Origin: an uncultured delta proteobacterium
GTDB lineage: Bacteria > Desulfobacterota > Desulfobacteria > Desulfobacterales > Desulfosalsimonadaceae
NCBI GenBank assembly: GCA_963826785.1
Contig: CAWGYD010000005.1
Location: forward strand, 288,001-352,000
Direction: 5' to 3'
Length of the DNA stretch: 64,000 nt
Shown: piece after piece, positions 6,105-34,802 of the stretch
Position numbering within the stretch: the first letter of the stretch is position 1
Layout of the letters: each line of letters opens with the position of its first letter
Position numbers and translations under genes: made by a program
The notes under the pieces: generated by a model
Databases searched by the model: none
The model's input: only the letters and a program-made list of their open reading frames with translations
What the model was told of the DNA's origin: nothing

Positions 6105-6577
6105 CATAAGCGCTAACTTAACGCATAGTATCCCCCCCGTAATCATCCTTTATGTCATTCCGGCAGTCTTTTAGCCGGAATCCATCTAAATGATTGCGGG
6201 ATACAAATCCTCCCAATCGGGATTCGTTCTCTCAATCAAATGCATTTTCCACTTTCGTTTCCAGTCTTTCAATCGTTTCTCTCGCTGGATAGCAGATTCC
6301 ATACTTCCATGAAGCTCATACCAAACCAAAAAATGGACTCCATACTTTTTGGTGAACCCTTCCACGAAATTGTTTCTATGTTCCCAAACTCGCTTGATGA
6401 GGTCGGAGGTCACACCGATATAAAGGGTGCCGTTTCTTTTATTTGCAAGAATGTATACCGCTGGTTGCCTGTTCATTTCGTCTTCCTGGATTCCGGCTTA
6501 AAGACTGCCGGAATGACGCTCTTAAGAGGAACGACAAATTAGAAGATATTGCATCGGTCATTAAGTTAGCGCTTATG
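6105..6577 (-). mobile_element. Element B copy 1: non-autonomous IS231-like cassette carrying a REP-flanked GIY-YIG gene (473 bp)
   Basis: Perfect 17-bp TIR CATAAGCGCTAACTTAA/TTAAGTTAGCGCTTATG; 11-bp direct repeat CCCCTGACCCC at 6094-6104 and 6578-6588. Confidence 0.9.
6186..6476 (-). CDS. Stand-alone GIY-YIG nuclease family protein
   Basis: AVYILANKRNGTLYIGVTSDLIKRVWEH...AIQREKRLKDWKRKWK; flanked by inverted hairpins 6154-6184 and 6487-6518. Confidence 0.92.
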   Translation of the reverse strand: MNRQPAVYILANKRNGTLYIGVTSDLIKRVWEHRNNFVEGFTKKYGVHFLVWYELHGSMESAIQREKRLKDWKRKWKMHLIERTNPDWEDLYPAII

Positions 6578-9299: not shown

Positions 9300-9431
9300 G
9301 ATGAAGCCGTAAAAAGTCGGATTTTACGCTTTCGTCATTCCGGCGGAGGCCGGAATCTACTACAAACTTAGTTGGTTATAGACTCCGGCTTTCACCGGAG
9401 TGACGAACTTCGGACTTTTTACGGGTTCATC
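9300..9431. mobile_element. MITE A copy 1 (132 bp)
   Basis: GATGAAGCCGTAAAAAGTC...GACTTTTTACGGGTTCATC ends; TSD AAATTT at 9294-9299 and 9432-9437; internal REP doublet. Confidence 0.88.
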
Positions 9432-16584: not shown

Positions 16585-16723
16585 TCTATGATGAAATTGA
16601 AAGAAATCGGTTCAATATTGATGAAGCCGTAAAAAGTCGGATTTTACGCTTTCGTCATTCCGGCGGAGGCCGGAATCTACAACAAACTAAGTTGGTTATA
16701 GACTCCGGTTTTCACCGGAATGA

Positions 16724-18571
16724 GTGCGTCCGTAAAGGCGCCATATCAGCACGGTGTAAGTCCGTGTCGGGGTAAGCCAAGGCCCCGTAGTCGAGGGTAA
16801 CTGCGTCACCGCGAGGTGGGGTGGAGAGCAACCGGAGACGAACTGGCGGTCCGCAGGATGACGAACTTGATTCGGCGGGATGCAGCGACGAGCCTGCTCA
16901 TTCATGGTGAAGTCCGAAAATCGTCCGGTACGCTGGGTATTGGCGCGTAAAGCGGTGCCGGGGCGCATCACGTGGTTGGAGGTGGAACGCCGGAAAGGTG
17001 TGGCGAGATAAGCGGAGAGACCTGTTTGCGAGGTGACGCAGGCAGGAGTCAGAGCCTTCATAGTACCGAAGCAGCCGATGCTGCGGAAAGCGCGGGAAGC
17101 AAAACCGTGCCGAGGGAAGGGAGGCAGGAAGGTAGATGCGTGAAATCCAACGACAGGCAAAGCATAAGCAAAGCGCCGGCAGTGCCGGTAACGGCTAAGC
17201 AAGGCGCAGAGACCGGGCATCGGGACTGGTGCTGGGTGGAAGCCTCGATTTGGACGCCGCGCATGCTGGCGGCGCTGGAAAACGGCGTCAAAGGAGGCAA
17301 GTGGTTCAGCTTGATCGACAAGCTGGTTCGTCCCGGCACCCTGGAACTGGCGTGGCACAAGGTCGCGCGAAACAAGGGGGCGGCCGGAGTGGACGGGCAG
17401 AGCGTTGAGCGGTTTTCGTTGAAGGCGGATAAATATCTTAAGGAGCTGGAAGAAGCATTGAAGGCCGGCACTTACCGGCCGCAGCCGGTCAAGCGCGTGG
17501 AGATACCCAAAGGGCCGGGTCGCACTCGACCCCTGGGCATTCCGGCGGTAAAAGACCGCATCGTACAAACTGCGCTGAAGCTGGTAATAGAGCCGATTTT
17601 CGAATGGGACTTTCTGGATTCGAGCTATGGCTTTCGACCTGGACGCGGATGCAAAGACGCCCTGCGGGAGGTAGACGGTTTGATTAAGGCAGGCTACACG
17701 CACGTTGTGGACGCCGACCTTGCGAGCTACTTTGACACCATTCCGCATGACCGATTGATGATCCGAGTGCAGGAGCGCATCAGCGACGGGCGTATTCTGG
17801 ATCTGATTCGGGGATACCTGGGTCAGGATATCGTCCGTGGGCTGGAGCGCTGGACGCCGACCGGAGGAACTCCGCAAGGTGCGGTGATCAGTCCCCTGCT
17901 GGCGAACCTGTACCTGCATCCGCTGGATGTGCTGATGCGGACAAAAGGTTATCGCATGGTCCGATACGCAGATGACTTTGTGGTGATGTGTCCCAGTGCA
18001 GAGGCAGCGCAGTCGGCCCTGGCCGACATACGCGCCTGGGTAAAAGAAAATGAACTTACCCTGCATCCGGACAAAACCCACGTGGGAGACTGCACAGTAG
18101 AAGGACAAGGCTTTGACTTCCTGGGTTACCGGTTTGAAGCCGGAAAGCGATGGGTTCGAAAGAAAAGCCTCAAGTCCCTGCGGGAGCGTATACGGGCCAA
18201 AACCGGCCGATCCCGTGGAGAGAGCCTGGACCAGATAATAGGCAGTTTGAATCCGATGCTCATAGGTTGGTTTGGCTACTTCAAACATGCGAATCCATTT
18301 ACCTTTAAGATGATTGATGGTTTTGTCCGCCGCCGACTGCGATCTGTCTTGCGCAAACAAAAGCGACGACCGGGTATGGGTCGCTGCCTGGCCGATCATA
18401 AACGCTGGCCTAATGCATTTTTCGCTGAGCACGGGCTTTTCACCTTAACCGAAGCCCATGCTGTGGCGCGCCAGTCACGATGTTGAAACTACCAACTGGA
18501 GAGCCGTGTGCGGGAGAACCGCACGCACGGTTCGGAGGGCGGGGAGGGCGAGAGCCTTTCCCGACCCCTAT
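16724..18571 (+). mobile_element. Group II intron (retroelement)
   Basis: 5' GTGCG at 16724; domain V GAGCCGTGTGCGGGAGAACCGCACGCACGGTTC and domain VI ending CCCTAT at 18571; removal restores the MITE sequence CCGGAATGA|CGAAAGCG. Confidence 0.93.
16972..18486 (+). CDS. ltrA: Group II intron reverse transcriptase/maturase, no endonuclease domain (true start probably further downstream)
   Basis: NKGAAGVDG, RPLGIP..KDR, SYGFRPGR, GTPQGAVISPLLAN, RYADDF, FDFLGY; ends after domain X. Confidence 0.95.
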   Translation: MVGGGTPERCGEISGETCLRGDAGRSQSLHSTEAADAAESAGSKTVPREGRQEGRCVKSNDRQSISKAPAVPVTAKQGAETGHRDWCWVEASIWTPRMLAALENGVKGGKWFSLIDKLVRPGTLELAWHKVARNKGAAGVDGQSVERFSLKADKYLKELEEALKAGTYRPQPVKRVEIPKGPGRTRPLGIPAVKDRIVQTALKLVIEPIFEWDFLDSSYGFRPGRGCKDALREVDGLIKAGYTHVVDADLASYFDTIPHDRLMIRVQERISDGRILDLIRGYLGQDIVRGLERWTPTGGTPQGAVISPLLANLYLHPLDVLMRTKGYRMVRYADDFVVMCPSAEAAQSALADIRAWVKENELTLHPDKTHVGDCTVEGQGFDFLGYRFEAGKRWVRKKSLKSLRERIRAKTGRSRGESLDQIIGSLNPMLIGWFGYFKHANPFTFKMIDGFVRRRLRSVLRKQKRRPGMGRCLADHKRWPNAFFAEHGLFTLTEAHAVARQSRC

Positions 18572-18683
18572 CGAAAGCGTAAATTCGGACTTTTTACGGG
18601 TTCATCAATATTGATTCTCTATATAATCGATATGTTTGCTTAGCCGGACGGTCCGACACCCCCCTTTATCCCCCCTGGAGGGG

Positions 18684-18928
18684 CATAAGCGCTGACTTAA
18701 CGCATAGTATCCCCCCCGTAATCATCCTTTATGTCATTCCGGCAGTCTTTTAGCCGGAATCCAATGAATAGCAAAGGGTGCCGTTTCTTTTATTTGCAAG
18801 AATGTATACCGCTGGTTGCCTGTTCATTTCGTCTTCCTGGATTCCGGCTTAAAGACTGCCGGAATGACGCTCTTAAGAGGAACGACAAATTAGAAGATAT
18901 TGCATCGGTCATTAAGTTAGCGCCTATG
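18684..18928 (-). mobile_element. Element B copy 3: internally deleted (245 bp), only ~18 GIY-YIG codons remain
   Basis: Same TIRs (1 mismatch each); 11-bp TSD CCCTGGAGGGG at 18673-18683 and 18929-18939; inserted in a family-C REP. Confidence 0.9.
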
Positions 18929-19357
18929 CCCTGGAGGGGGGAATTTTCCGATATCCCCCACTCCCCCCTTGAGGGGGGAATTAAAGGGGGGGTGTTTCGG
19001 CGTCAGCCACAACGCAATCACAGATAGTCTTATACTGTAAAAACAACCTATGGTTATGCGGAAGTTACACACTTCGCGGCATATTCACATAAACACTTTT
19101 CCCATTCAACCTTTATCTTTTCGTCGATTCCCTTCAGGAGGGGGGATAAAGGGGGAGTGCAAGCCGAACACAGGTAACACTTTGGAGCTTTAACTCAAAA
19201 AAAACTGGATTCCGGATAAAAGCCTCCCGGAATGACTTAAAAGAGAAAATCCTGAATTTGTTAGGTCCCAACAAAGATTGACAACTCAATCCCTTTACAA
19301 TATTTTAATTTCATATTCAGACGGGAATTTGCAGCTTAAATTCAAACAATCAATGTT

Positions 19358-19488
19358 GATGAAGCCGTAAAAAGTCGGTTTTACGCTTTCGTCATTCCGG
19401 CGGAGGCCGGAATCTACTACAAACTAAGCTGGTTATAGACTCCGGTTTTCACCGGAGTGACGAACTTCGGACTTTTTGCGGGTTCATC
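19358..19488. mobile_element. MITE A copy 3 (131 bp)
   Basis: Non-palindromic TSD AATGTT at 19352-19357 and 19489-19494. Confidence 0.9.
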
Positions 19489-19515
19489 AATGTTTATTAA
19501 ATCAAGAGAGAAACG

Positions 19516-19731
19516 ATGAGAGGCGAACTTACCGCTATAATTGAAAAGGCCCCCGGAGGTGGATATTGGGCCATTTGTCCGGAAATTCCTGGTGCCAATG
19601 GACAAGGTGAAACCATCGAAGAAACAAAAGATAATTTAAAAGAGGCTGTTCTGCTTATTCTGGAGGACCGGCTTGAAGACATCAAACGGGGCCTTCCCGA
19701 TGACATCATTCAGGATACGATAGCTCTCTGA
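19516..19731 (+). CDS. hicB: HicB-family antitoxin
   Basis: YWAICPEIPGANGQGETIEETKDNLKEAV motif. Confidence 0.88.
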   Translation: MRGELTAIIEKAPGGGYWAICPEIPGANGQGETIEETKDNLKEAVLLILEDRLEDIKRGLPDDIIQDTIAL

Positions 19732-19911
19732 TGAAACGAAAAGATCTTGAAAAAATGTTGCGTTTAGCCGGCTGTTATCTGAAGAGAGAAGGAAAAATCA
19801 CATTCCTTATGGATTAACCCCAGAACAGGCGTTTTGGAAGCCGTACCAAGGCATGCGGAATTAAAAGAACCTTTGGCAAGAAAGATCTTGAAAAGTTTAG
19901 ACGCAGCATAA
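19731..19911 (+). pseudogene. hicA: HicA-family toxin, +1 frameshift in an A run (~19793-19797)
   Basis: Removing one A gives MKRKDLEKMLRLAGCYLKREGKSHSLWINPRTGVLEAVPRHAELKEPLARKILKSLDAA. Confidence 0.82.
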
Positions 19912-20295
19912 TTCGACTTAACCCATCGCATCACCCCAGCGAGCATCCCCAGCGAGCATCCCCCAGCGAGCATCCCCCCAACGTCATTCCGGAGATCTTT
20001 TATCCGGAATCCATCTCCTTCATCCGGCATTCCGGCCCGATCCCACAAACATCTTGACAACACTGGTACCGGTCACCCACAACGTTAATTTCTTCTTTCA
20101 TAGCAATCCATTCCCCATACAAGGAGGGCGCCCACAATCCATTCCCCCCTCGAGATGTGCGCCCAATCTCCATTCCTCCCCTTGAAAAGTGGAAGCCATT
20201 TTTCAAATCGTTGACGGGCCGGACCAAAAACTAATGATTATTTATTGCATATCCCCTCCAGCAAGTATATATTAAATGCCATTACTGGAGGAAAT

Positions 20296-20917
20296 ATGCA
20301 AGAAATTGGAGTGGATCTGCCGGATAGTGTCTGGCTCCAACATTATTTTGCTCATTATGCCAACCCCAAGGCGGTAATTGCGCGTCTTGTGCGCAACGGA
20401 GTGTTATATCGTCTCAAAAGAGGGCTTTATTTCAAGGCGGAAAAAAAAAGCGATCCTTACACCAAGGGAAAGGCTTCGAACCGCCTGTACGGTCCATCTT
20501 ATGTCTCTTTTGTCTATGCGCTCAGGTGGTACGGTCTTATACCGGAACATGTGGCGCACATCACTTCGGCAACAATGGGTAAGGGCAGAAAAAAAAGATA
20601 TGATACACCGTTGGGATCGTTTTTTTATCAGGATATCCCAGCGGATGCCTATCCTCATGGAATAGGCTTTGTCGGTGAGAGATCTGATCGGTTTTTGATG
20701 GCATCTCCGGAAAAAGCCCTTTGCGATGAATTATACCGGGTCTCCGGAATACGTTCCGTAAAGAGATTGAAGCACTCTCCTTTCGGATGATTTGCGGTTG
20801 GATCATGATATGCTGGGCAAGCTGAACCATAAAGAATTGATCTTATTCTCTGCAAAATACCACTCATCAACGTTGGATACGTTTATCAGGTATCTGGAAA
20901 GAGGTCGGGATGCGTGA
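20296..20917 (+). CDS. AbiEi-like type IV antitoxin (frameshift near 20765-20780)
   Basis: RLKRGLY, YGPSYVSF..AL..YGLIPE, ASPEKALCD; C-terminus DDLRLD...ERGRDA in another frame to 20917. Confidence 0.8.
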
Positions 20918-21791
20918 GGCCGCTGTACAATTATTCGAAGAATATCTGCAAAAAAATGACGGGGCCGTGGACAGGGCTTTGGCCGAGGTCATCCAGGTCA
21001 TCGCATTGCTGGGGCTGTCGCGTACGGATTTTTTTTCCCAGGCAGCATTTTACGGTGGCACCGCCCTGAGACTTTTGTATAATCTGGATAGATTTTCCGA
21101 AGATCTGGATTTTTCGCTGATTCAACCGGCAAAGGAGTTCCGGTTGTCAGCCTATCTGGCCGCCTTGCAGGCTGAAATGGAAGCATTCGGATTCATGGTG
21201 GATATTGAAGACCGAAAGAAAAGCACCGACACTTCCATTGAATCCGCTTTTATAAAAGCCAACACAAGAACGCATGTAATTCAGGCGGGAGTGCCGCACG
21301 CCATTGCAAAAAGAATCCACAGAAGCGCAATATGTAAAGTGAAACTTAAAGTCGACGTTGACCCGCCGCCGGGTGCTGAGTTTGATGCAAAGTATGTTGA
21401 TGATCCGGTTCCCTTTTCCATCCGGTCCTACTCCGGGCCGTCTCTACTGGCGGGGAAAATGGACGCGATTCTGTACCGGGGCTGGCAAAACCGTGTAAAA
21501 GGGCGGGACTGGTATGATTTCGCCTTTTTTGTTCGAAAAAAAATTCCGCTTTTACTACCGCACTTTGAAGCACGAATTCGGCAGAGAGGTGTCTACACCC
21601 GGCAAATCCCCTTGAGCCATGAAGAATGTGTGCAAATGATTGCGGATCGTATCAAAACAGTTGATTTTGGAGCGGCAAAAGCCGATGTCATTGCCTTTTT
21701 ACCCCATCCCGGGGATCTGGATGTATGGTCCAGGGATTATTTTGACCATGTGCTACGCAATTTGCGATTTCTTCCCGAATATACAGGCTAA
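20910..21791 (+). CDS. AbiEii/AbiGii nucleotidyltransferase toxin
   Basis: FYGGTALRLLYNLDRFSEDLDFS, KGRDWYD motifs. Confidence 0.92.
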   Translation: MREAAVQLFEEYLQKNDGAVDRALAEVIQVIALLGLSRTDFFSQAAFYGGTALRLLYNLDRFSEDLDFSLIQPAKEFRLSAYLAALQAEMEAFGFMVDIEDRKKSTDTSIESAFIKANTRTHVIQAGVPHAIAKRIHRSAICKVKLKVDVDPPPGAEFDAKYVDDPVPFSIRSYSGPSLLAGKMDAILYRGWQNRVKGRDWYDFAFFVRKKIPLLLPHFEARIRQRGVYTRQIPLSHEECVQMIADRIKTVDFGAAKADVIAFLPHPGDLDVWSRDYFDHVLRNLRFLPEYTG

Positions 21792-21941
21792 AACAATTAG
21801 ATCGAAAATCTTTCTGAACCTCACCGTCATTCCGGAGATTTTTTATCCGGAATCCATCTGTGAGCAGGGCCTTTGACAAATGAGGCAACATTAATTATTA
21901 TGTGGCCACATTGATATCAATTAAACAGGAGAAGAATCGTC

Positions 21942-22211
21942 ATGGAAAGGGTCGGCATAAGAGAATTAAAAGAGAATATGAGCCGCTATATGAGCAAAAT
22001 CAGAACGGGGGAAAAAATTATTTTGACGGATCGAAAAAAGGAAATCGCCATCATAATGCCTCTTGGGAAAAAGCCCGGGGAAGAAAAACTCTATCAGCTG
22101 ATTCAGCAGGGATTGGCTTCCTGGGACGGCGGCATGCCGGAGGGCGTACCGGGAAGGATCGCCTCAAAGGGAAAGAGCGTATCTTCGGCAGTTATTGAAG
22201 ACCGGCGGTAA
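21942..22211 (+). CDS. Phd/YefM-family antitoxin
   Basis: VGIRELKENMSRYM...GEKIILTDRKKEIA. Confidence 0.88.
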   Translation: MERVGIRELKENMSRYMSKIRTGEKIILTDRKKEIAIIMPLGKKPGEEKLYQLIQQGLASWDGGMPEGVPGRIASKGKSVSSAVIEDRR

Positions 22212-22213
22212 CC

Positions 22214-22957
22214 ATGATTCTGTATCTGGATACCAGCAGTCTGGTCAAATTATATGTGGAAGAAGCAGAATCAGCAGAGATTGAGAGCATTGTCAAATCA
22301 TCTGAAGCTGCCGCAACTTCGATCGTCGCTTATGCGGAGGCAAGAGCGGCTTTTGCCCGGCGATTCAGGGAAGGCGCCTTCACCCATGATGATTATAATC
22401 GCCTGAAACAGTACTTTGACAAGGATTGGCGCAATTACTTTGTTTTGAATGTCACAGAAGAAGTGATCGGCCTGGCGGGTAATCTTTCAGAAGAGCATGC
22501 ATTAAGGGGTTTTGATTCCATCCATTTGGCTTCGGCAGTCATATTGCACCGGAAGACATCCTCGCCCGTTGTATTCTCATGCTTTGATGAACAGCTCATG
22601 AAAGCAGCCACTCAGAAAGGACTTAACAAAAAATCGGAAACCTCCCGGGAGAAGACGGCTGTGAATCATGTACATTTTCAGTTGCTTCAAAAAATGGCAA
22701 AAAAATATGTCTGGTGGGAAATGCCCGATGCCGCCATGATCAGGCCTGAGCGCATTATCAAGCAGGTGATGAATATCGGTGATTTTGATGATGTCCTTCT
22801 GCTGGTTGAATCCCTGGGAGAGCCGTATTTACGGAAGATTTTGAAGAATGCCGAGGCCGGCGATTTTAATTCCCGATCCTGGACTTACTGGCATTACCGG
22901 CTGGGACTTGCCGAACCCGGCCATGTCCCCGCCCCGCCAAAGCGGAAAATTCAATGA
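22214..22957 (+). CDS. VapC PIN toxin read-through fused to a DUF6922-like antitoxin domain
   Basis: YLDTSSLVKLYVEE...LRGFDSIHLASA...FDEQL, then MAKKYVWWE...RIIKQVMNIGDFDD...SWTYWHYRLG. Confidence 0.75.
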   Translation: MILYLDTSSLVKLYVEEAESAEIESIVKSSEAAATSIVAYAEARAAFARRFREGAFTHDDYNRLKQYFDKDWRNYFVLNVTEEVIGLAGNLSEEHALRGFDSIHLASAVILHRKTSSPVVFSCFDEQLMKAATQKGLNKKSETSREKTAVNHVHFQLLQKMAKKYVWWEMPDAAMIRPERIIKQVMNIGDFDDVLLLVESLGEPYLRKILKNAEAGDFNSRSWTYWHYRLGLAEPGHVPAPPKRKIQ

Positions 22958-23288
22958 TCCGAACCTTTAAACCCCGCATGGATGTTCTGCCTCCTGCCCA
23001 GAAACGGTTATGGGGGAACTCCGCAACACCCAGTTCGAAGCAAAAGATTACCGGGATATTGCCGTCATGATCGCGGCCGGTATCAGCCTCTCCAAAGGGC
23101 TTGCCGGCGCGCGCGGAATGTATGGGCTGCAATTTCAGCCGATTGAAAGCCTGAAAGCGATGGTCTATTTTGAGGGTGGAGATCTGCATACGCTGAAACC
23201 CGAAGAAAAGGAAATCCTGATCCGCGCCGCCGGAAAGGTGCGTGACCTGCCGGTGGTTGAGATTGTCTCTCGCCATTTGGCGCTATGA
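22954..23288 (+). pseudogene. Internally deleted AbiEii-like nucleotidyltransferase
   Basis: N-terminus MIRTFKPRMDVLPPAQKRLW joined almost directly to the C-terminal EAKDYRDI...LKAMVYFEGGDL; GGTA/DxD core absent. Confidence 0.7.
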
Positions 23289-23363
23289 ACCAAAAGAGGT
23301 TATCGGCAGCGGTTCATGCGCTGCGCAATTTGCGATTTCTTCCCGAATATAAAAGGAGCTTTC

Positions 23364-23759
23364 ATGCTGAAGCCCGATGATATGCACAAAGTACAACAAT
23401 TTTGTTCAACATACTCCGAAATAGCGGCAGCCTATCTCTTCGGGTCTTCGGCAACCGGCAAGGACCGTAAAAAAAGCGACATTGATATCGCCATTATGGT
23501 AAAATCTAAAATCGAGGCTATGGTGCGGGTCGAAATGGAAACGGCCCTTTCCACCCGACTGCATCGGGATGTCGATCTCGTGATTTTCGATCAGGGCTCT
23601 CCTCTTCTTCAGCATCAGATTCTGAAATACGGCCGCCTGGTCTATGAGGCGGATCCAAAAGAGCGTGTTCGGCAGGAAGTTTTTGCCCGAAATGCATATT
23701 TGGACAGCGCCTATTTGTACCGCAAGATCAAACCGGAGACCGCGCATGGTGGACATTGA
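23364..23759 (+). CDS. MNT (MntA-like) nucleotidyltransferase antitoxin
   Basis: AAYLFGSSATGKDRKKSDIDIAI, DVDLV. Confidence 0.88.
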   Translation: MLKPDDMHKVQQFCSTYSEIAAAYLFGSSATGKDRKKSDIDIAIMVKSKIEAMVRVEMETALSTRLHRDVDLVIFDQGSPLLQHQILKYGRLVYEADPKERVRQEVFARNAYLDSAYLYRKIKPETAHGGH

Positions 23760-24172
23760 GCTTCTTTCCAGAAAACTCTCACGCCTTCAGTGCTATGTGG
23801 ATGAGTTAAAGGCAGCCACGGATATTACCTGGGAAAAGTACCGATCCGATCTTCGGACCAAGAGCCTTTGTGGAGCGTTTTCTGCATCTTGCCATAGAAG
23901 AGGTGATCGACATCGCCAACCACATTGTCTCGTTTGAACAATGGCGGGAGCCTTCCGGATATCGGGATCTGTTGCAGATTCTTTCAGAAAAAGGAATTAT
24001 CCCGGAAAAACAGCTTCCCCGGTTTCAGAATATGGCTTCGTTCCGTAACATGCTGGTCCATCGCTACGAAAATATCGATGAAGAACTGGTTTACGGCATC
24101 TTCAGCAAACACTTGGCAGATTTTGAACTTTTTGCAGCCTTAATCATGCAATGGGTTAAAATATCCCACTAA
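23746..24172 (+). CDS. HEPN/DUF86 (HepT-like) RNase toxin, frameshift near 23862
   Basis: MVDIELLSRKL... then VERFLHLAIEEVIDIANH...FRNMLVHRY (R-X4-H). Confidence 0.85.
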
Positions 24173-24268
24173 CCCATCACCATCACACCCATAACCCCTA
24201 ACCCCTAACCACCCATAACCCATAACCCATAACTACCCATCCTACCCATCACCCATAACCCATCACCT
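24166..24268 (+). repeat. C-rich heptamer tandem array (TAACCCA/TAACCCC/TCACCCA)
   Basis: ~14 imperfect units starting at the HEPN stop codon. Confidence 0.9.
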
Positions 24269-24482
24269 ATCGTTCCCTGGATTCTCTGACTGCCGTGATA
24301 ATATCTTTTGTAGTTGCCTTGGTTTGGATTCCAGGAACATCAAATGGAGATTTTTTGCTTTTTGTAAAAATTATTGAAAATGTTTCACCACCCCTTCTTT
24401 TGATAATAACTTCTTCATTTCTTGCGGTATTAAGAACATCAGCGAGACGCTGTCTTGCTTCAGAATATGTATATACTTTCAT
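24267..24482 (-). CDS. Phd-like antitoxin
   Basis: MKVYTYSEARQRLADVLNTARNEEVIIKRRGG. Confidence 0.85.
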   Translation of the reverse strand: MKVYTYSEARQRLADVLNTARNEEVIIKRRGGETFSIIFTKSKKSPFDVPGIQTKATTKDIITAVRESRER

Positions 24483-24489
24483 GATTGCT

Positions 24490-24879
24490 TTACTCCAAAA
24501 TTGTGATCCCCATCTCCCGCGCTACCCTTTGCATTCCAACGTCAAGCGTGAGTAACGGACTGCGAAGGTTTTCAGCGCATTTCAAAAAGTATGCATCATA
24601 TGCATATAGGTTAAATTTAATTGCGATGCTTAATGCTGATTTTATATCCGTTTTTCTTAAATCAACGGGTATCTGTTGAACAATCTCCCAAGCTGATTCG
24701 ACTTCTTCCTTTATTAAAACGTGTTTTTTCATCATTGCCGTCAATGCATTTCCAATTTCAAAAGGCAAAACATCAGGTGCAATTAATTCATGGCCTTCGG
24801 TAAATTGGATGATTTTTTCTTTTTCCGGCTCGTTCAAAGCAACTGCTATAAATGTATTTGTGTCAGCGACTATTTTCAT
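24490..24879 (-). CDS. vapC: VapC/PIN toxin (upstream of its antitoxin)
   Basis: MKIVADTNTFIAV...FEIGNAL...YAYDAYFL...LLTLD. Confidence 0.9.
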   Translation of the reverse strand: MKIVADTNTFIAVALNEPEKEKIIQFTEGHELIAPDVLPFEIGNALTAMMKKHVLIKEEVESAWEIVQQIPVDLRKTDIKSALSIAIKFNLYAYDAYFLKCAENLRSPLLTLDVGMQRVAREMGITILE

Positions 24880-24915
24880 AGGTACAATTGTACGCATTTC
24901 GCCCCCGGTTGTCAA
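24880..24915 (-). promoter_or_regulatory. Sigma70 promoter giving a probably leaderless vapC mRNA, with palindromic operator
   Basis: Minus strand TTGACA-N17-TACAAT-N7-ATG; GTACAATTGTAC palindrome over the -10. Confidence 0.65.
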
Positions 24916-25072
24916 ACCAAATTTCAGCGCGGCCCGAATGCCCCGCATAACCAGATGGCACCCCTAATAATCTAATAATCCAAAATCCACTTGATCCAGT
25001 TTGGTTTTATTTGGTATGGTTGGTTTAAAAAGACCTGCCAGGTCTTTTTAAACCAAAAGGAGTTGAATTATT

Positions 25073-25309
25073 ATGAAGATAGTCAATATTTCTGAGGCAA
25101 AAACCAATCTTTCCAAGCTGGTGGCGCTTGTTTACCGTGGAGAGAAGGTTGTTATTGCAAAAAACAACCTGCCGCTTGTGGATCTGGTTATTCATAAACC
25201 GGAAGGAAAAAGAAAACTCGGATTGCTGGCAGGCAAATTCACTGTTCCGGACAATATAATGGATGAGGATGCTGAAATAAACTCAATGTTCTATGGCAGT
25301 GATTCATGA
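25073..25309 (+). CDS. Phd/YefM-family antitoxin
   Basis: VNISEAKTNLSKLV...GEKVVIAKNNLP...RKLGLLAG. Confidence 0.9.
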   Translation: MKIVNISEAKTNLSKLVALVYRGEKVVIAKNNLPLVDLVIHKPEGKRKLGLLAGKFTVPDNIMDEDAEINSMFYGSDS

Positions 25310-25677
25310 ATATCATCATTGATACCCATATTTTTCTCTGGGCATTGTCTGATCCGGAGAGGATAAGTGCTTCGAAACGTACGGCATTGGAAGATTTGTC
25401 CAATACGATCTATGTCAGTGCTGTCAGTATCGCTGAAATTATGATTAAGGCATCTGTCGGGAAGCTTGCGATAGACTTTAATCCGGCAGATATGGCTACC
25501 GAAAGCGGCTTCGCGCTTCTTGATTTCAGCGCGGAAGCAGCGTTGTTGCTCAAGGATATGCCATTTCACCATAAAGATCTTTTCGATCGCATGCTGATAG
25601 CGCAAAGCATTACAGACAACTTTCCGATAATGACGGAAAATCCGAAAATAGCGCTGTATGATTGCCGGGTAATGTGA
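25306..25677 (+). CDS. vapC: VapC/PIN toxin
   Basis: IIDTHIFLW...VSAVSIAEIMIK...HKDLFDRMLIAQS. Confidence 0.9.
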   Translation: MNIIIDTHIFLWALSDPERISASKRTALEDLSNTIYVSAVSIAEIMIKASVGKLAIDFNPADMATESGFALLDFSAEAALLLKDMPFHHKDLFDRMLIAQSITDNFPIMTENPKIALYDCRVM

Positions 25678-25964
25678 TTATGTAATGGCATATCAGATAA
25701 CGCATTGCCACCTCCGCCCCATGTCGCGTCGTTTTCTTCTTCATGAAAAGGTGATTCAGCGGGTTTTCCCCAAAGATTTACAGAGAAAATACCAGTATGT
25801 CAGATCCATTTTATGTAAATAGACTGTATCCTTTTACATGCTCTAATTCGCATTAATGTTCACAATCGTTACAGTTCATCTTGTCATCTTGACATTTTGT
25901 CATTTATTACATATCTTAGTCTGTAAGCAATCAGCGTTTCAAACGATATCCAAAAGAGGACATT

Positions 25965-26228
25965 ATGCTTGTAACCATCGATAAAAGAGGCAGTATCAAT
26001 TTGCCAGCTTCCGTTCGGAAGGATTTAGGTATTCGGTCAGGAACCCACCTGGAGCTGACCGTGGCACCCGGCGGGGCCATCACACTTTTTCCGGTTGAAA
26101 TATATCGCAGCATCAAACTCAGCGATGCCGGTTTATTAAAAATTAAAGAGGCCAGAGCATCAGAACCGGCCACATTCCCGGAATGGTTTGACAAGGAACT
26201 TGCCGATGCCGGAACTGATCCCGAATAA
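25965..26228 (+). CDS. AbrB/MazE-family antitoxin
   Basis: VTIDKRGSINLPASVRKDLGIRSG. Confidence 0.85.
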   Translation: MLVTIDKRGSINLPASVRKDLGIRSGTHLELTVAPGGAITLFPVEIYRSIKLSDAGLLKIKEARASEPATFPEWFDKELADAGTDPE

Positions 26229-26508
26229 AAAATTCATCGCTGATCTTGTAAATTTCAAAAAGAATCCGGCATTAATCAAAAAAATTGCCAAATGCTTGAA
26301 GTTTCTGGAAACCAATCCCCTTCATCCGGGGCTGAAAATTGAGCGGATCGCCAATGACCCGAGTGCTTGGTCCGCTCGTGTGGACTTAAAATACCGAATA
26401 TCCTTTGAACCTTCTGCCTTTCGTGAGAATGGTGCGCCGGACTGGACTTTCCCTATAAATCTTTTGCGCATCCTGGAGCATGACGATCTTTACAAAACTC
26501 CTCATTAA
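26206..26508 (+). CDS. RelE-like toxin
   Basis: KCLKFLETNPLHPGLKIERI...WSARVDLKYRISF...HDDLY; overlaps the AbrB gene. Confidence 0.75.
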   Translation: MPELIPNKKFIADLVNFKKNPALIKKIAKCLKFLETNPLHPGLKIERIANDPSAWSARVDLKYRISFEPSAFRENGAPDWTFPINLLRILEHDDLYKTPH

Positions 26509-26835
26509 ATTCTTTTTTTCAGTCTGATGTCAGAACGCAGCATAATTCGACTTAACCCATCGCATCACCCCAGGTAGCATCCCCCCAACGTCATTCCGGA
26601 GATCTTTTATCCGGAATCCATCTCCTTCATCCGGCATTCCGGCCCGATCCCACAAACATCATGACAACACTGGTACTGGTCACCCAACAGCATTGCCCGG
26701 CTCCGTTTCACCGGAAGCTCAAAATTTATCTTCCGTTTCTTCTTCCATAGCATTCCATTCCCCCCTCGAGGGAGGCGCCCACATTCCATTCCCCCCTCGA
26801 GGGAGGCGCCCACATTCCATTCCCCCCTCGAGGGG

Positions 26836-27308
26836 CATAGGCGCTAACTTAATGACCGATGCAATATCTTCTAATTTGTCGTTCCTCTTAAGAGCGTCAT
26901 TCCGGCAGTCTTTAAGCCGGAATCCAGGAAGACGAAATGAACAGGCAACCAGCGGTATACATTCTTGCAAATAAAAGAAACGGCACCCTTTATATCGGTG
27001 TGACCTCCGACCTCATCAAGCGAGTTTGGGAACATAGAAACAATTTCGTGGAAGGGTTCACCAAAAAGTATGGAGTCCATTTTTTGGTTTGGTATGAGCT
27101 TCATGGAAGTATGGAATCTGCTATCCAGCCAGAGAAACGATTGAAAGACTGGAAACGAAAGTGGAAAATGCATTTGATTGAGAGAACGAATCCCGATTGG
27201 GAGGATTTGTATCCCGCAATCATTTAAATGGATTCCGGCTAAAAGCCTGCCGGAATGACATAAAGGATGATTACGGGGGGGATATTATGCGTTAAGTTAG
27301 CGCTTATG
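26836..27308 (+). mobile_element. Element B copy 2 (473 bp, inverted relative to copy 1)
   Basis: TIRs CATAGGCGCTAACTTAA / TTAAGTTAGCGCTTATG; imperfect flanking repeat CCCCTCGAGGGG / CCCCTTGAGGGA. Confidence 0.9.
26937..27227 (+). CDS. GIY-YIG nuclease, near-identical to 6186-6476 (REK changed to PEK)
   Basis: Same translation except R>P; REP hairpins at 26895-26926 and 27229-27259. Confidence 0.9.
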   Translation: MNRQPAVYILANKRNGTLYIGVTSDLIKRVWEHRNNFVEGFTKKYGVHFLVWYELHGSMESAIQPEKRLKDWKRKWKMHLIERTNPDWEDLYPAII

Positions 27309-27514
27309 CCCCTTGAGGGAGGCGCCCACATTCCATTCCCCCCTCGAGGGAGGCGCCCACATTCCATTCCCCCCTCGAGGGGGGCGCCCCACACTCCATT
27401 CCCCCCTAGAGGGAGGCGCCCACAAATCTCCATTCCCCCCTTGAGGGGGGCGCAGGGGGGGTGTCCCCACGCTGGCAATGAACTCCACAACCCATGGGTC
27501 ACGTCCGCAGTCAT

Positions 27515-27920
27515 CGTTTAGCCAGCTTTTATCTGAAGAGAGAATGAAAATCTCATTTTTTATTGATTAAACCCCGAACAGGCGTTTTGAAAACCATACA
27601 ATGCATGCGGAAACTAAAAGAATCAAGGCCTTTGAAAAATGAGGCAACGTTAATTATTATGTGGGCACATTGGTATCAATCAAAGAGGAGAAGAATCGTT
27701 ATGGAAAGGGTCGGCATAAGAGAATTAAAAAGAGTAATATGAGCCGCTATATGAGCAAAATCAGAACGGGGAAAAAAATTATTTTGACGGATCGAAAAAA
27801 GGAAATCGCCATCATAATGCCTCTTTGGGAAAAAGATATAGCTTAAGGCTTCGTTAGGCATATACTAGAATCATAACAAAAAATCGGAAACCTCCCAGGA
27901 GATGCCGGCTGTGAATTATC
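27515..27920 (+). pseudogene. Mosaic of degenerate fragments of hicA, phd promoter/5' end and the vapC junction
   Basis: 27515-27622 matches 19761-19870; 27627-27836 matches 21868-22072; 27874-27920 matches 22624-22670. Confidence 0.85.
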
Positions 27921-28130
27921 CGTTTGAATGGGAACAGATTATCATCGAGGCGAGAGAGAAGGATTTGTGGGTGGAGCCGATCACTGTTTCTCGTTTGATC
28001 CGGGAATTTCCAGCAAAGAACATGCAGGCAATCAAGTGGATTAAACCCGTGAACGAAACAAAATTACTGAAACTCCTTGAGACCGTCAGTGATGATATCG
28101 GGATTATCAACCAGTATGGTGAATTTCGCT

Positions 28131-28324
28131 TCAATGATCAGAAAGAAGGACTTTTATCTTGTCTTCCGATATCCAGAGGGTAATGTCGATATCCAGGGTG
28201 GCCTTGGGGTTTCCCCATTTCGCATTGGCCAAGCCGCCAATGACCATGTAATAGACACTGTGATTGTCCAAGACGGCGGTAATATCGCGAAGCGATTTTT
28301 CAAAAACATTTTTATTTCGGGCAT
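28131..28324 (-). pseudogene. N-terminal fragment of a nucleotidyltransferase (DUF6036-like)
   Basis: YMVIGGLANAKWGNPKATLDIDI motif, then truncation. Confidence 0.7.
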
Positions 28325-28533
28325 GCCAGCGCCTTGTGCATTTTAATAATGCCTTCGACATTGATTTCTCTTTGCCTGGCATCCTCCAGAATCAATTCAT
28401 ACAACTCGAAAACTGCGGCAAGGCTCTGATCGTCATCCATCTTGTCCCGGCGGTTTTTCTCCCATTCGTTAAATCGATGGAGCGATTCAAGATATTGTTT
28501 GTATGGGTTTTTGGTGGGGGATTGGTTTTTCAT
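28312..28533 (-). CDS. Small hypothetical protein, probable partner of the NTase
   Basis: 73-aa charged helical ORF overlapping the NTase start. Confidence 0.5.
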   Translation of the reverse strand: MKNQSPTKNPYKQYLESLHRFNEWEKNRRDKMDDDQSLAAVFELYELILEDARQREINVEGIIKMHKALACPK

Positions 28534-28835
28534 GGGGATAGGATATTATACTGATCCCTGGCTCCTTGCAGAATCTCATCACGGAAATAGCGGCTGAGGC
28601 TGTTTGGGGTATTTATGTCTACTCTGCGACCTCCAAAAAGCCTTGAAAGTTCCTGTTCCATATCGAATAGCTCGAAAAAACCAACTCGTGCGCCGGGTTT
28701 AAACTCTACCAATACATCAACGTCGCTGTTTGGCCCAAAGTCTTCTCGTAAAACAGACCCAAAGAATGCGAATCGCCGGATTTTATTCCGTTGGCAAAAA
28801 TCAGCAATTTCCTTTTCCGGTATTTTTATTTGCAT
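28530..28835 (-). CDS. Minimal nucleotidyltransferase (MNT); no adjacent HEPN partner
   Basis: IADFCQRNKIRRFAFFGSVLREDFGPNSDVDVLVEF...GRRVDI. Confidence 0.9.
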   Translation of the reverse strand: MQIKIPEKEIADFCQRNKIRRFAFFGSVLREDFGPNSDVDVLVEFKPGARVGFFELFDMEQELSRLFGGRRVDINTPNSLSRYFRDEILQGARDQYNILSP

Positions 28836-28873
28836 ACAAATATCTTCTTTTTATGAGGCAATGGGTTAGGGGA

Positions 28874-29287
28874 TTAAGGGGTGCTGGGTGGTTCGAGTCG
28901 TTTCATCCAGTTCAGGCGATCATAGTGTTTATCATAGGAATATAATTCGTATATTTCCTTTATCCTCATGCTGCAGGCATTATATGCATCGATATAGTCG
29001 ATACGTTTTTCCTCGTAAACGGCAAGCGCATGAAGAATGACTTCTTTATTTTCGCACTCCAGGTTTTCTGTGTTGAGAATCTTTTCGACCTTTTCGCGAA
29101 TGTCTGTTCTTGACAGCTCGTAATAAGATTCAAGAACCCATATAATTTCGGCTATGACCATGTCATTGGTACACAATATTTCTTCTCCGGCAACAGCTTT
29201 CCGGAAAAGCGCTTCGCAGGCATTTGCCTGGTGAGCAACATCGTTAATGAGGAAGCGAAGAAATATGTTGGTGTCAACAAAGCGCAT
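28874..29287 (-). CDS. vapC: VapC/PIN toxin
   Basis: MRFVDTNIFLRFL...IAEIIWVLESYY...DYIDAY...YSYDKHYD. Confidence 0.9.
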   Translation of the reverse strand: MRFVDTNIFLRFLINDVAHQANACEALFRKAVAGEEILCTNDMVIAEIIWVLESYYELSRTDIREKVEKILNTENLECENKEVILHALAVYEEKRIDYIDAYNACSMRIKEIYELYSYDKHYDRLNWMKRLEPPSTP

Positions 29288-29288
29288 T

Positions 29289-29543
29289 TTACTCCTTCCC
29301 TTCGGCGATTTTCTTTGCAATTGCCTTGCGGGCGGATGCACGTATATCTTCGAAGTCGCCGGGTTTGCCTTTTGCCGGTACGCTGCCCTTTAATTCGAGA
29401 ATATCTCCATGGATAGGCCTAAGAATAACCTTCCCGTCTTCGAGCAGGTAAAGCAAGCGATCGTTTGGCTTGATTCTGAGCAATTCCCTAATCTTTTTAG
29501 GAATTGTTGTTTGTCCCTTACTGGTGACGATTGACTGCACCAT
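29289..29543 (-). CDS. AbrB/MazE-family antitoxin
   Basis: SIVTSKGQTTIPKKIRELLRIKPND. Confidence 0.9.
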   Translation of the reverse strand: MVQSIVTSKGQTTIPKKIRELLRIKPNDRLLYLLEDGKVILRPIHGDILELKGSVPAKGKPGDFEDIRASARKAIAKKIAEGKE

Positions 29544-29629
29544 GGTGAATCTCCTTATTTATTTTATATGCATTACATTTTAAAGAATGAATTGTTTATT
29601 GTCAAGGGGAGGGAGGAGGATAATGTTTT

Positions 29630-29660
29630 GGTAATGGGTTATGGGTAATGGGTTATGGGG
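29630..29660 (+). repeat. G-rich heptamer array (GGT[A/T]ATG)x4
   Basis: GGTAATGGGTTATGGGTAATGGGTTATGGGG; reverse complement of the array at 30056-30110. Confidence 0.85.
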
Positions 29661-29679
29661 GGAAGGGGGAAAGGGAGTG

Positions 29680-30072
29680 ATGGGGGAGGGGTTTCGGGGT
29701 CTTCATGTTTGGCAGAAATCGAGGGATTTGGCGGTTGCGGTATATGAACAGACAGATCAAGGGATGTTGAAAAAGGATTTTGGTTTGCGTGATCAGATCA
29801 GGTGATCAGCTGTCAGCGTGCCCAGTAACATCGCGGAGAGTGATGAGCGGGACACGAATAAAGATGCCATCCGATTTTTCTATATGGCAAAAGGATCATT
29901 AGCCGAGTTAAGAACGCAACTTGAAATCGCCCATTTGATAGGCTATATCGAAAAAGATTCTTTTTCCGAATTCGAAAATCGCTGCCAGGAAATCGCCAGA
30001 ATGCTGGGCAGCTTAATAAAAGCAAGAAGCCCCCAAGCTCCTAAAAAAAATTTGCTAACCCATAACCCATAA
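29680..30072 (+). pseudogene. Four-helix-bundle (23S rRNA IVP / Avd-like) protein with in-frame TGA at 29803
   Basis: MGEGFRGLHVWQKSRDLAVAVY...DFGLRDQIR*SAVSVPSNIAES...FFYMAKGSLAELRTQLEIA. Confidence 0.88.
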
Positions 30073-30110
30073 CCCATAACCCATAACCCCTAACCCACTA
30101 ACCCATAACC
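30056..30110 (+). repeat. C-rich heptamer array (TAACCCA)n
   Basis: TAACCCA x4, TAACCCC, TAACCCAC, TAACCCA, TAACC. Confidence 0.9.
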
Positions 30111-33169: not shown

Positions 33170-33730
33170 ACACCCCCCTGGCCCCCCTCAAGGGGGGAAT
33201 CATTCTCTATACTGACGATTACCCACACATGACGACGGGGATGAATTGGCATGGGTGCAAAGACTCGATTTAATTTATAATTAATTGTTCATCGCCTTTT
33301 AATTCCCCCCTTGAGGGGGGCAGGGGGGTGTCCCCGCGCCGGTCATCTCAAGGGGGGAATCATTCTCTATGCTGACGATTACCCACACATGACGACGGGG
33401 ATGAATTGGCATGGGTGCAAAGACTCGATTTAATTTATAATTAATTGTTCATCGCCTTTTAATTCCCCCCTTGAGGGGGGCAGGGGGGTGTCCCCGCGCC
33501 GGTCATCTCAAGGGGGGAATTATTCTCTATACTGACGATTACCCACACATAACGACGGGGATGAATTGGCATGGGTACAAAGACTCGTTATCAATTTACA
33601 ATTGCAAATTGATAATTCGCAATTCACAATAAATTGTTCATCATGATCATGGAAAAAATTAAGAGGTGCCTCCCCATTAAATTCCCCCCTTGAGGGGGGG
33701 GCAGGGGGGGTGTCCCCACGCCGGTCATCT
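33170..33730. repeat. Three ~160-bp tandem units bounded by family-C REPs
   Basis: AGGGGGGAAT(C/T)ATTCTCTAT recurs at 33191, 33351 and 33511. Confidence 0.9.
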
Positions 33731-34670: not shown

Positions 34671-34802
34671 GATGAACCCGCAAAAAGTCGGATTTTACGC
34701 TTTTGTCATTCCGGCGGAGGCCGGAATCTACTACAAACTAAGCTGGTTATAGACTCCGGTTTTCACCGGAGTGACGAACTTCGGACTTTTTACGGATTCA
34801 TC
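34671..34802. mobile_element. MITE A copy 4 (132 bp), in the lysR-yedF intergenic region
   Basis: TSD AACGTT at 34665-34670 and 34803-34808. Confidence 0.88.

Follow-up and report, generated by a model that had tools for sequence, protein, structure and literature searches.

A nuclease gene and its hairpins lie within a larger cassette

The 64,000-nucleotide stretch of DNA analysed here (the window), from an uncultured member of the Desulfosalsimonadaceae, contains a small nuclease gene between two hairpins, and gene and hairpins are enclosed in turn by a 473-bp cassette with transposon-type ends that is set into an array of G/C-rich palindromes:

26755-26835, no strand assigned: host G/C palindromic repeat array, left part, the insertion target
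26824-26835, + strand: left target-site duplication of 12 bp, differing at 2 positions from the right copy (11 bp in siblings)
26836-27308, no strand assigned: non-autonomous cassette with IS186/IS231-type ends, 473 bp; six full-length copies have identical boundaries
26836-26852, + strand: left terminal inverted repeat, 16/17 identical to the IS186A end
26895-26927, + strand: upstream SRM/NTS-type hairpin directed toward the gene, CGTCATTCCGG-N11-CCGGAATCCA
26937-27227, + strand: Ssn-family single-domain GIY-YIG nuclease gene, 96 aa, from ORF, Pfam and homologue comparison
27229-27260, - strand: downstream SRM/NTS-type hairpin, inverted, from repeat search and folding
27292-27308, - strand: right terminal inverted repeat, 17/17 identical to the IS186A end
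27309-27320, + strand: right target-site duplication, partner of 26824-26835
27309-27475, no strand assigned: host G/C palindromic repeat array, right part
6105-6577, - strand: second full cassette copy, intact ORF at 6186-6476, Arg65, perfect 11-bp duplication
18684-18928, - strand: internally deleted cassette copy, 245 bp, one of five, perfect 11-bp duplication

The 96-aa product, whose sole Pfam match is PF01541 (E 1e-13), consists of one GIY-YIG domain and falls below the 150-aa limit for Ssn nucleases, which Chenal et al. 2025 (PMC11893778) describe as single-domain GIY-YIG enzymes flanked by NTS/SRM hairpins. Similarity to Neisseria SsnA at E < 1e-10, the threshold for membership of this family, is reached through an ORF of Neisseria gonorrhoeae (58 of 93 residues identical, 62%, ungapped; E 3e-44) that sits amid 12 NTS matches and that, from this repeat context, we take to be orthologous to SsnA of N. 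meningitidis. Like SsnA (cd10448), the focal protein is a single-domain GIY-YIG protein of ~95 aa with the same Tyr/Tyr/Glu spacing, encoded between CGTCATTCC-type hairpins on both sides; the trio, here Y8, Y19 and E66, is kept in 105 of 111 homologues and, judged from its spacing, would correspond to SsnA Y6, Y17 and E64. By homology with Ssn, which binds its hairpin as single-stranded DNA and cleaves a few bases upstream (PMC11893778), the 96-aa protein would recognise single-stranded hairpin DNA and cleave it a few bases to the 5' side of the hairpin. Comparison with solved structures returned nothing beyond one distant UPF0213 protein, no convincing promoter was found within the cassette, and viral contigs gave a single distant homologue match, without hairpins. 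Elsewhere in the genome, a second, divergent ssn paralogue (G000:C4:167247-167525, L054; 62% identity) has its own hairpin variant and lacks IS186-type ends.

The focal copy carries Pro65 where its siblings carry Arg65, at a position that adjoins the catalytic Glu within a helix (single-sequence fold of low confidence, pLDDT 59) and that is Arg in 94, Lys in 10, Gln in 2 and Pro in none of 106 homologues; contigs of three other sequencing runs have an Arg codon there. The focal protein is probably impaired, or Pro65 is an assembly error, and the focal cassette is probably a damaged daughter copy. The listed sequencing runs, covered in small shares only, included no RNA run, and their contigs contained no joint across the cassette, a result that is uninformative either way.

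An earlier reading of this DNA from sequence alone had described the ORF as bracketed by inverted hairpins, which is confirmed, and homologues usually share this arrangement. The hairpins at 26895-26927 and 27229-27260 face inward, with fold z-scores of -3.3 and -3.9; the published degenerate SRM pattern fits each with one edit and neither exactly, a CGTCATTCC..GGAATC frame is common to them and NTS, and the loop is longer than in the known Ssn systems. With up to one mismatch allowed, the hairpin 11-mer matches 22 times in the window, where 2.36 matches would be expected; none of 100 shuffles reaches that number. Of 104 homologues flanked by 150 nt or more on each side, 93 have a hairpin on at least one side; for the wider family, PMC11893778 gives SRMs in the vicinity of 71% of homologues, with 42% having them on both sides.

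Ends, copies and targets of the cassette

The sequence-only reading drew its unit from 26895 to 27259; the gene and hairpins within those limits are real, whereas the mobile unit is larger, with boundaries 59 and 48 bp beyond the hairpins, at the terminal inverted repeats. Both ends match the IS231-subgroup signature CAT-------AA--TAA, for which Table 1 of PMC2266710 gives 10-12 bp repeats. Inside the cassette a passenger gene is present and a transposase is absent.

Genome-wide, 12 two-ended copies occur, in three size classes: 473-475 bp (six copies), 245-246 bp (five) and 333 bp (one). The target-site duplication is a perfect 11 bp in seven copies and contains a single mismatch in three more; in the focal copy 2 of 12 bp are mismatched, and the remaining copy shows three mismatches. 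Ten of the 12 therefore carry a duplication in the 10-12 bp range with at most one mismatch. The full-length copies differ from each other at 1-8 positions, so their spread is recent. What the earlier reading had called deleted copy 3 is indeed the 245-bp form at 18684-18928, which retains the first 18 codons of the ssn gene; because each 245/246-bp copy has its own duplication, this form must have moved without a gene of its own. Removing the cassette in silico restores the host G/C repeat, of which the genome contains 198 uninterrupted copies.

Targets here are mostly CCCC..GGGG. Of 22 perfect duplications, 17 start and finish with three G/C bases. The motif given for Escherichia coli IS186 is GGGG(N6/7)CCCC (PMC5009759), whereas the targets here, although bounded by G/C, are mostly of reverse or mixed polarity; given this difference, we class the cassette as IS186-like and not as IS186. 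The targeted palindromic repeat itself has 291 core matches genome-wide (copies, for example, at window positions 27432-27475 and 33681-33724). It also lies, inverted, on both sides of the genome's only DUF559 nuclease-like gene (G000:C5:9468-9773, L184), making a second pair of nuclease and palindrome.

Most hairpins reside in two transposon-type vehicles

The remaining hairpins of the window fall into a second, smaller element, MITE A, and a few single sites:

9300-9431, + strand: MITE A, 132 bp, ends unrelated to the cassette, 6-bp duplication, hairpin doublet
16620-18606, + strand: MITE A copy with a group II intron within its second hairpin
19358-19488, + strand: MITE A copy
34671-34802, + strand: MITE A copy
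19206-19237, - strand: single hairpin outside cassette and MITE A
19982-20012, + strand: single hairpin in a 119-bp segment duplicated at 26568-26686
21825-21855, + strand: single hairpin outside cassette and MITE A
26589-26619, + strand: single hairpin, in the second copy of the duplicated 119-bp segment

All four single hairpins listed in the earlier reading are present, as are the doublets that it placed in every MITE A, with the refinement that the second hairpin of each doublet is a compensated stem variant and that the copy at 16620 is split by the intron. Of the MITE A copies of ~132 bp, 24 of 32 have perfect 5-7 bp duplications, mostly of 6 bp. MITE A may belong to an ISDol1-like family, and no autonomous partner was found among paired ends in this genome.

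A group II intron-like element interrupts three MITE A copies at a hairpin (window 16620-18606, G000:C5:280852-282831 and G000:C10:16661-18640); the window copy contains an RT-like ORF, assigned by sequence motifs, at 16972-18486. From the ORF list, the stretch from ~19500 to 30100 is presumably dense in small toxin-antitoxin-like gene pairs, with palindromic repeats and short duplications between them.

MITE A accounts for 63 of the 102 hairpins in the genome and the cassette for 27, leaving 12 at other sites (shuffles gave 0, 0 and 2 hairpins). With 90 of 102 thus inside one or other element, transposon-type vehicles, and not the nuclease, best explain hairpin spread in this genome. Across the order the MITE A design recurs in 80 of 301 genomes, its elements (window 9300-9431 and L320-L349) keeping a length of mostly 132-133 bp and the hairpin doublet while the inner sequence has diverged. 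MITE-A-type ends also occur without hairpins (L325). At another locus, one of 27 (L359, genome G282), MITE-A-type ends flanked by a 6-bp duplication enclose an ssn gene together with hairpins, possibly a second, independent capture of ssn.

Search for a cognate transposase

In the cassette's own genome (assembly 88% complete), neither the E. coli IS186 protein, nor a six-row profile, nor NF033592 above its cut-off detected an IS186-like transposase. PF01609 matches in that genome were rejected as the cognate transposase, being without cassette-type ends. One locus of the same order (L165) is an autonomous IS with both ends identical to those of IS186A and an NF033592 match above cut-off; a further genome (G333) has five autonomous IS copies with cassette-type ends as well as the hairpin MITE. 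Overall, an intact cognate transposase was found in 2 of 45 cassette genomes, against a baseline of 2 intact among 301 genomes of the phylum sample; three more of the 45 have C-terminal transposase remnants, with no cognate end beside them. Multi-copy insertion sequences are frequently missing from metagenome assemblies.

Distribution of the cassette and its relatives

When GTDB genomes were searched for the end followed by the start of the hairpin, 107 loci emerged. They come from at least 44 genomes, labelled as Desulfobacterota and relatives, Alpha- and Betaproteobacteria, Bipolaricaulota, Chloroflexota and Nitrospinota, and none of the 107 showed an IS186-like transposase nearby. An ssn match is present at 31 loci (14 with a partner end and duplication) and absent from 76 (22 with both), giving 36 of 107 with partner end and duplication, counts that are lower bounds since 27 loci have only short flanks and many loci run into contig edges.

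Among homologues picked by protein similarity alone and having at least 150 nt on each side, the IS186-type end accompanies 18 of 38 at 72% identity or above, 6 of 40 in the 66-72% range and 0 of 27 at lower identity. This count excludes 17 of 122 homologue rows because their flanks were shorter, and it includes some metagenome contigs that are near-duplicates. A second homologue set, from the order, has the end in 1 of 27. De novo search around the 122 homologues for other duplicated ends yielded only the IS186 type plus two doubtful matches. On a protein tree the cassette label is clustered (13 changes versus 27 when shuffled), although the tree was built quickly, leaves 59 of its 97 forks open and fits a single origin of the cassette as well as several. 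For cassette-borne ssn genes, the 63 scorable pairs out of 91 have a median dN/dS of 0.08, indicating strong purifying selection.

The same IS186-type ends also enclose other contents. One element of 1015 bp (L073) has these ends and hairpins, other DNA as cargo and no ssn match; in proteobacterial genomes, gene-less IS186-type MITEs lie in the loop of an SRM hairpin (L129 and L157, also L097 and L101), and at two proteobacterial loci the empty site is an SRM hairpin. A preference for G/C palindromes would bring such ends beside hairpin-flanked nuclease genes, favouring capture.

Hairpin number and the nuclease gene across the order

Hairpin abundance does vary with the gene among 270 relatives from the whole order: 20 or more hairpins occur in 29 of 47 gene-positive and in 34 of 223 gene-negative genomes, with medians of 29 and 2. 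This association is overstated, since related genomes are not independent, and a genome was scored as lacking the gene when one query did not find it, in assemblies that are related and incomplete. MITE A does not track the gene: 10 or more matches occur in 5 of 50 genomes scored as having it and in 20 of 250 scored as lacking it. Among the 63 hairpin-rich genomes, no gene was detected by that query in 34; MITE A accounts for 10% or more of the hairpins in 17 of these 34 and in 5 of the 29 with the gene. These patterns suggest two routes of hairpin spread, one MITE-borne and one linked to Ssn, and Ssn may have a family-level role in spreading hairpins.

Discussion

The shared ends, the 11-bp duplications and the deleted copies with duplications of their own make up the anatomy of a mobile insertion cassette. 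We consider it likely that the locus is an IS4-type, trans-mobilised cassette carrying an Ssn module, and that the hairpins of this genome multiplied for the most part as hitchhikers on transposon ends. At its core, an Ssn-family nuclease gene would lie between its two recognition hairpins; around it, IS186/IS231-type ends would make that module the cargo of a transposase-less mobile insertion cassette. The ends, duplications and empty sites are observed directly; the enzyme acting on the cassette, we infer, is an IS4-family DDE transposase that, supplied in trans and probably only transiently, would insert it into G/C palindromes with an 11-bp duplication, much as trans-mobilisation has been reported for IS231 cassettes (PMC6199540). 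Internal deletion would then give rise to gene-less hairpin doublets that are still mobile, and the second, unrelated MITE would disperse additional ones.

Three sets of observations sit awkwardly with this account. Hitchhiking alone leaves unexplained the purifying selection on cassette-borne ssn; a cassette-only reading does not account for total hairpin number following the gene across the order; and against a transposase acting in trans stand its absence from searches of the cassette's own genome, its intact presence in only 2 of 45 cassette genomes and a target polarity mostly reversed relative to E. coli IS186.

The sequence-only reading had gone further, suggesting that the GIY-YIG family itself spreads CGTC-type REPs. 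Ssn would then be an analogue of RAYT, placing hairpins and hairpin-gene-hairpin units by nicking single-stranded DNA, with host repair finishing the insertion. Part of this survives beyond the locus: homologues are flanked by hairpins (93 of 104), hairpin medians differ with the gene across the order (29 versus 2), and the smaller number of gene-positive than gene-negative hairpin-rich genomes with a MITE A share of at least 10% (5 of 29 versus 17 of 34) points to another route in gene-positive genomes; IS186 ends, moreover, are missing from most homologues of less than 72% identity, and cutting by Ssn 5' of the hairpin is published (PMC11893778). In this genome, by contrast, the gene is copied as cargo and 90 of 102 hairpins travel in the two MITE-type vehicles. 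At this locus the boundaries are IS186-type ends bordered by 11-bp duplications, 59 and 48 bp past the hairpins; the gene went undetected in 34 of 63 hairpin-rich genomes, and relatedness inflates the association. In contrast to HUH enzymes, GIY-YIG enzymes are not known to form a covalent intermediate. GIY-YIG domains use one active site to hydrolyse DNA (PMC3664794), and the available text of PMC11893778 demonstrates cutting and no strand joining. Since transposition through IS186-type ends explains the many gene copies without the nuclease acting as a transposase, we regard the RAYT analogy as an unlikely explanation of this locus; it could apply to the family yet not account for this cassette.

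A quite improbable compromise is a two-enzyme element, in which Ssn nicks the spacer between end and hairpin and so aids excision, copying or survival, allowing spread even where the DDE transposase is rare. It would accommodate the retention of hairpin doublets within two unrelated end types, the ssn gene between MITE-A-type ends (1 of 27 loci), purifying selection at saturated synonymous distance and the intact cognate transposase in 2 of 45 genomes only; but MITE A is abundant in gene-less genomes (20 of 250), MITE-A-type ends are found without hairpins, the rarity of the transposase may reflect assembly drop-out of multi-copy elements, and the selection may be a legacy of free ssn genes that were captured again and again, in keeping with the 13 label changes on the tree. 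There is a small chance that the locus is a two-component parasite, in which nicking by Ssn at the internal hairpins is required for, or strongly boosts, movement of the IS186-ended element; Modules of Ssn and hairpins would then have taken over IS ends many times in different phyla, making CGTC-REP doublets where a resident DDE transposase is scarce or absent.

The trans-mobilised cassette that we favour joins features of several known systems. With Ssn it shares the protein, 62% identical to the N. gonorrhoeae homologue among NTS repeats, and the paired hairpins; it differs in its longer loop, in being multi-copy where Ssn is single, in the Pro65 of the focal copy, and in the IS186-type ends and target duplications that enclose the unit, which the available text of PMC11893778 does not describe. 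With IS186 (IS4 family) and MIC231 it shares the terminal 17 bp of IS186A, 10-12 bp duplications and G/C-rich palindromic targets, and with MIC231 a passenger gene without transposase; however, its target polarity is not that of E. coli IS186, it measures 473 bp where MICs measure 700 bp to 3 kb, its cargo is a nuclease with its own recognition hairpins, and it occurs in several Gram-negative phyla and Chloroflexota, not in Bacillus. Like REPtrons and REPINs with RAYT, it has a gene between inverted hairpins, gene-less inverted doublets and the CGTC tag of CGTC-tagged REPs, but the protein is a GIY-YIG enzyme and an HUH/Y1 tyrosine transposase is absent. The pairing of gene and hairpin and the analogy with REP transposases are already published, the Discussion of PMC11893778 likening NTS-ssnA-NTS to REP-associated IS200/IS605 enzymes. 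For CGTC repeats, Di Nocera et al. 2013 (PMC3733652) noted no dedicated transposase and proposed that other transposases might move them, which the MITE vehicles here fit. We found no description of an IS186-ended Ssn cassette in titles and abstract openings of the literature, subscription journals lying outside that scope.

Counts of SRM hairpins should accordingly be read with caution, as they blend Ssn-linked and MITE-borne copies. For the spread of CGTC-type REPs and of Ssn genes, this locus offers one concrete route, in which gene and hairpins would travel on IS186-type ends, both inside a genome and from one genome to another, and loss of the cassette interior would yield REPIN-like doublets.
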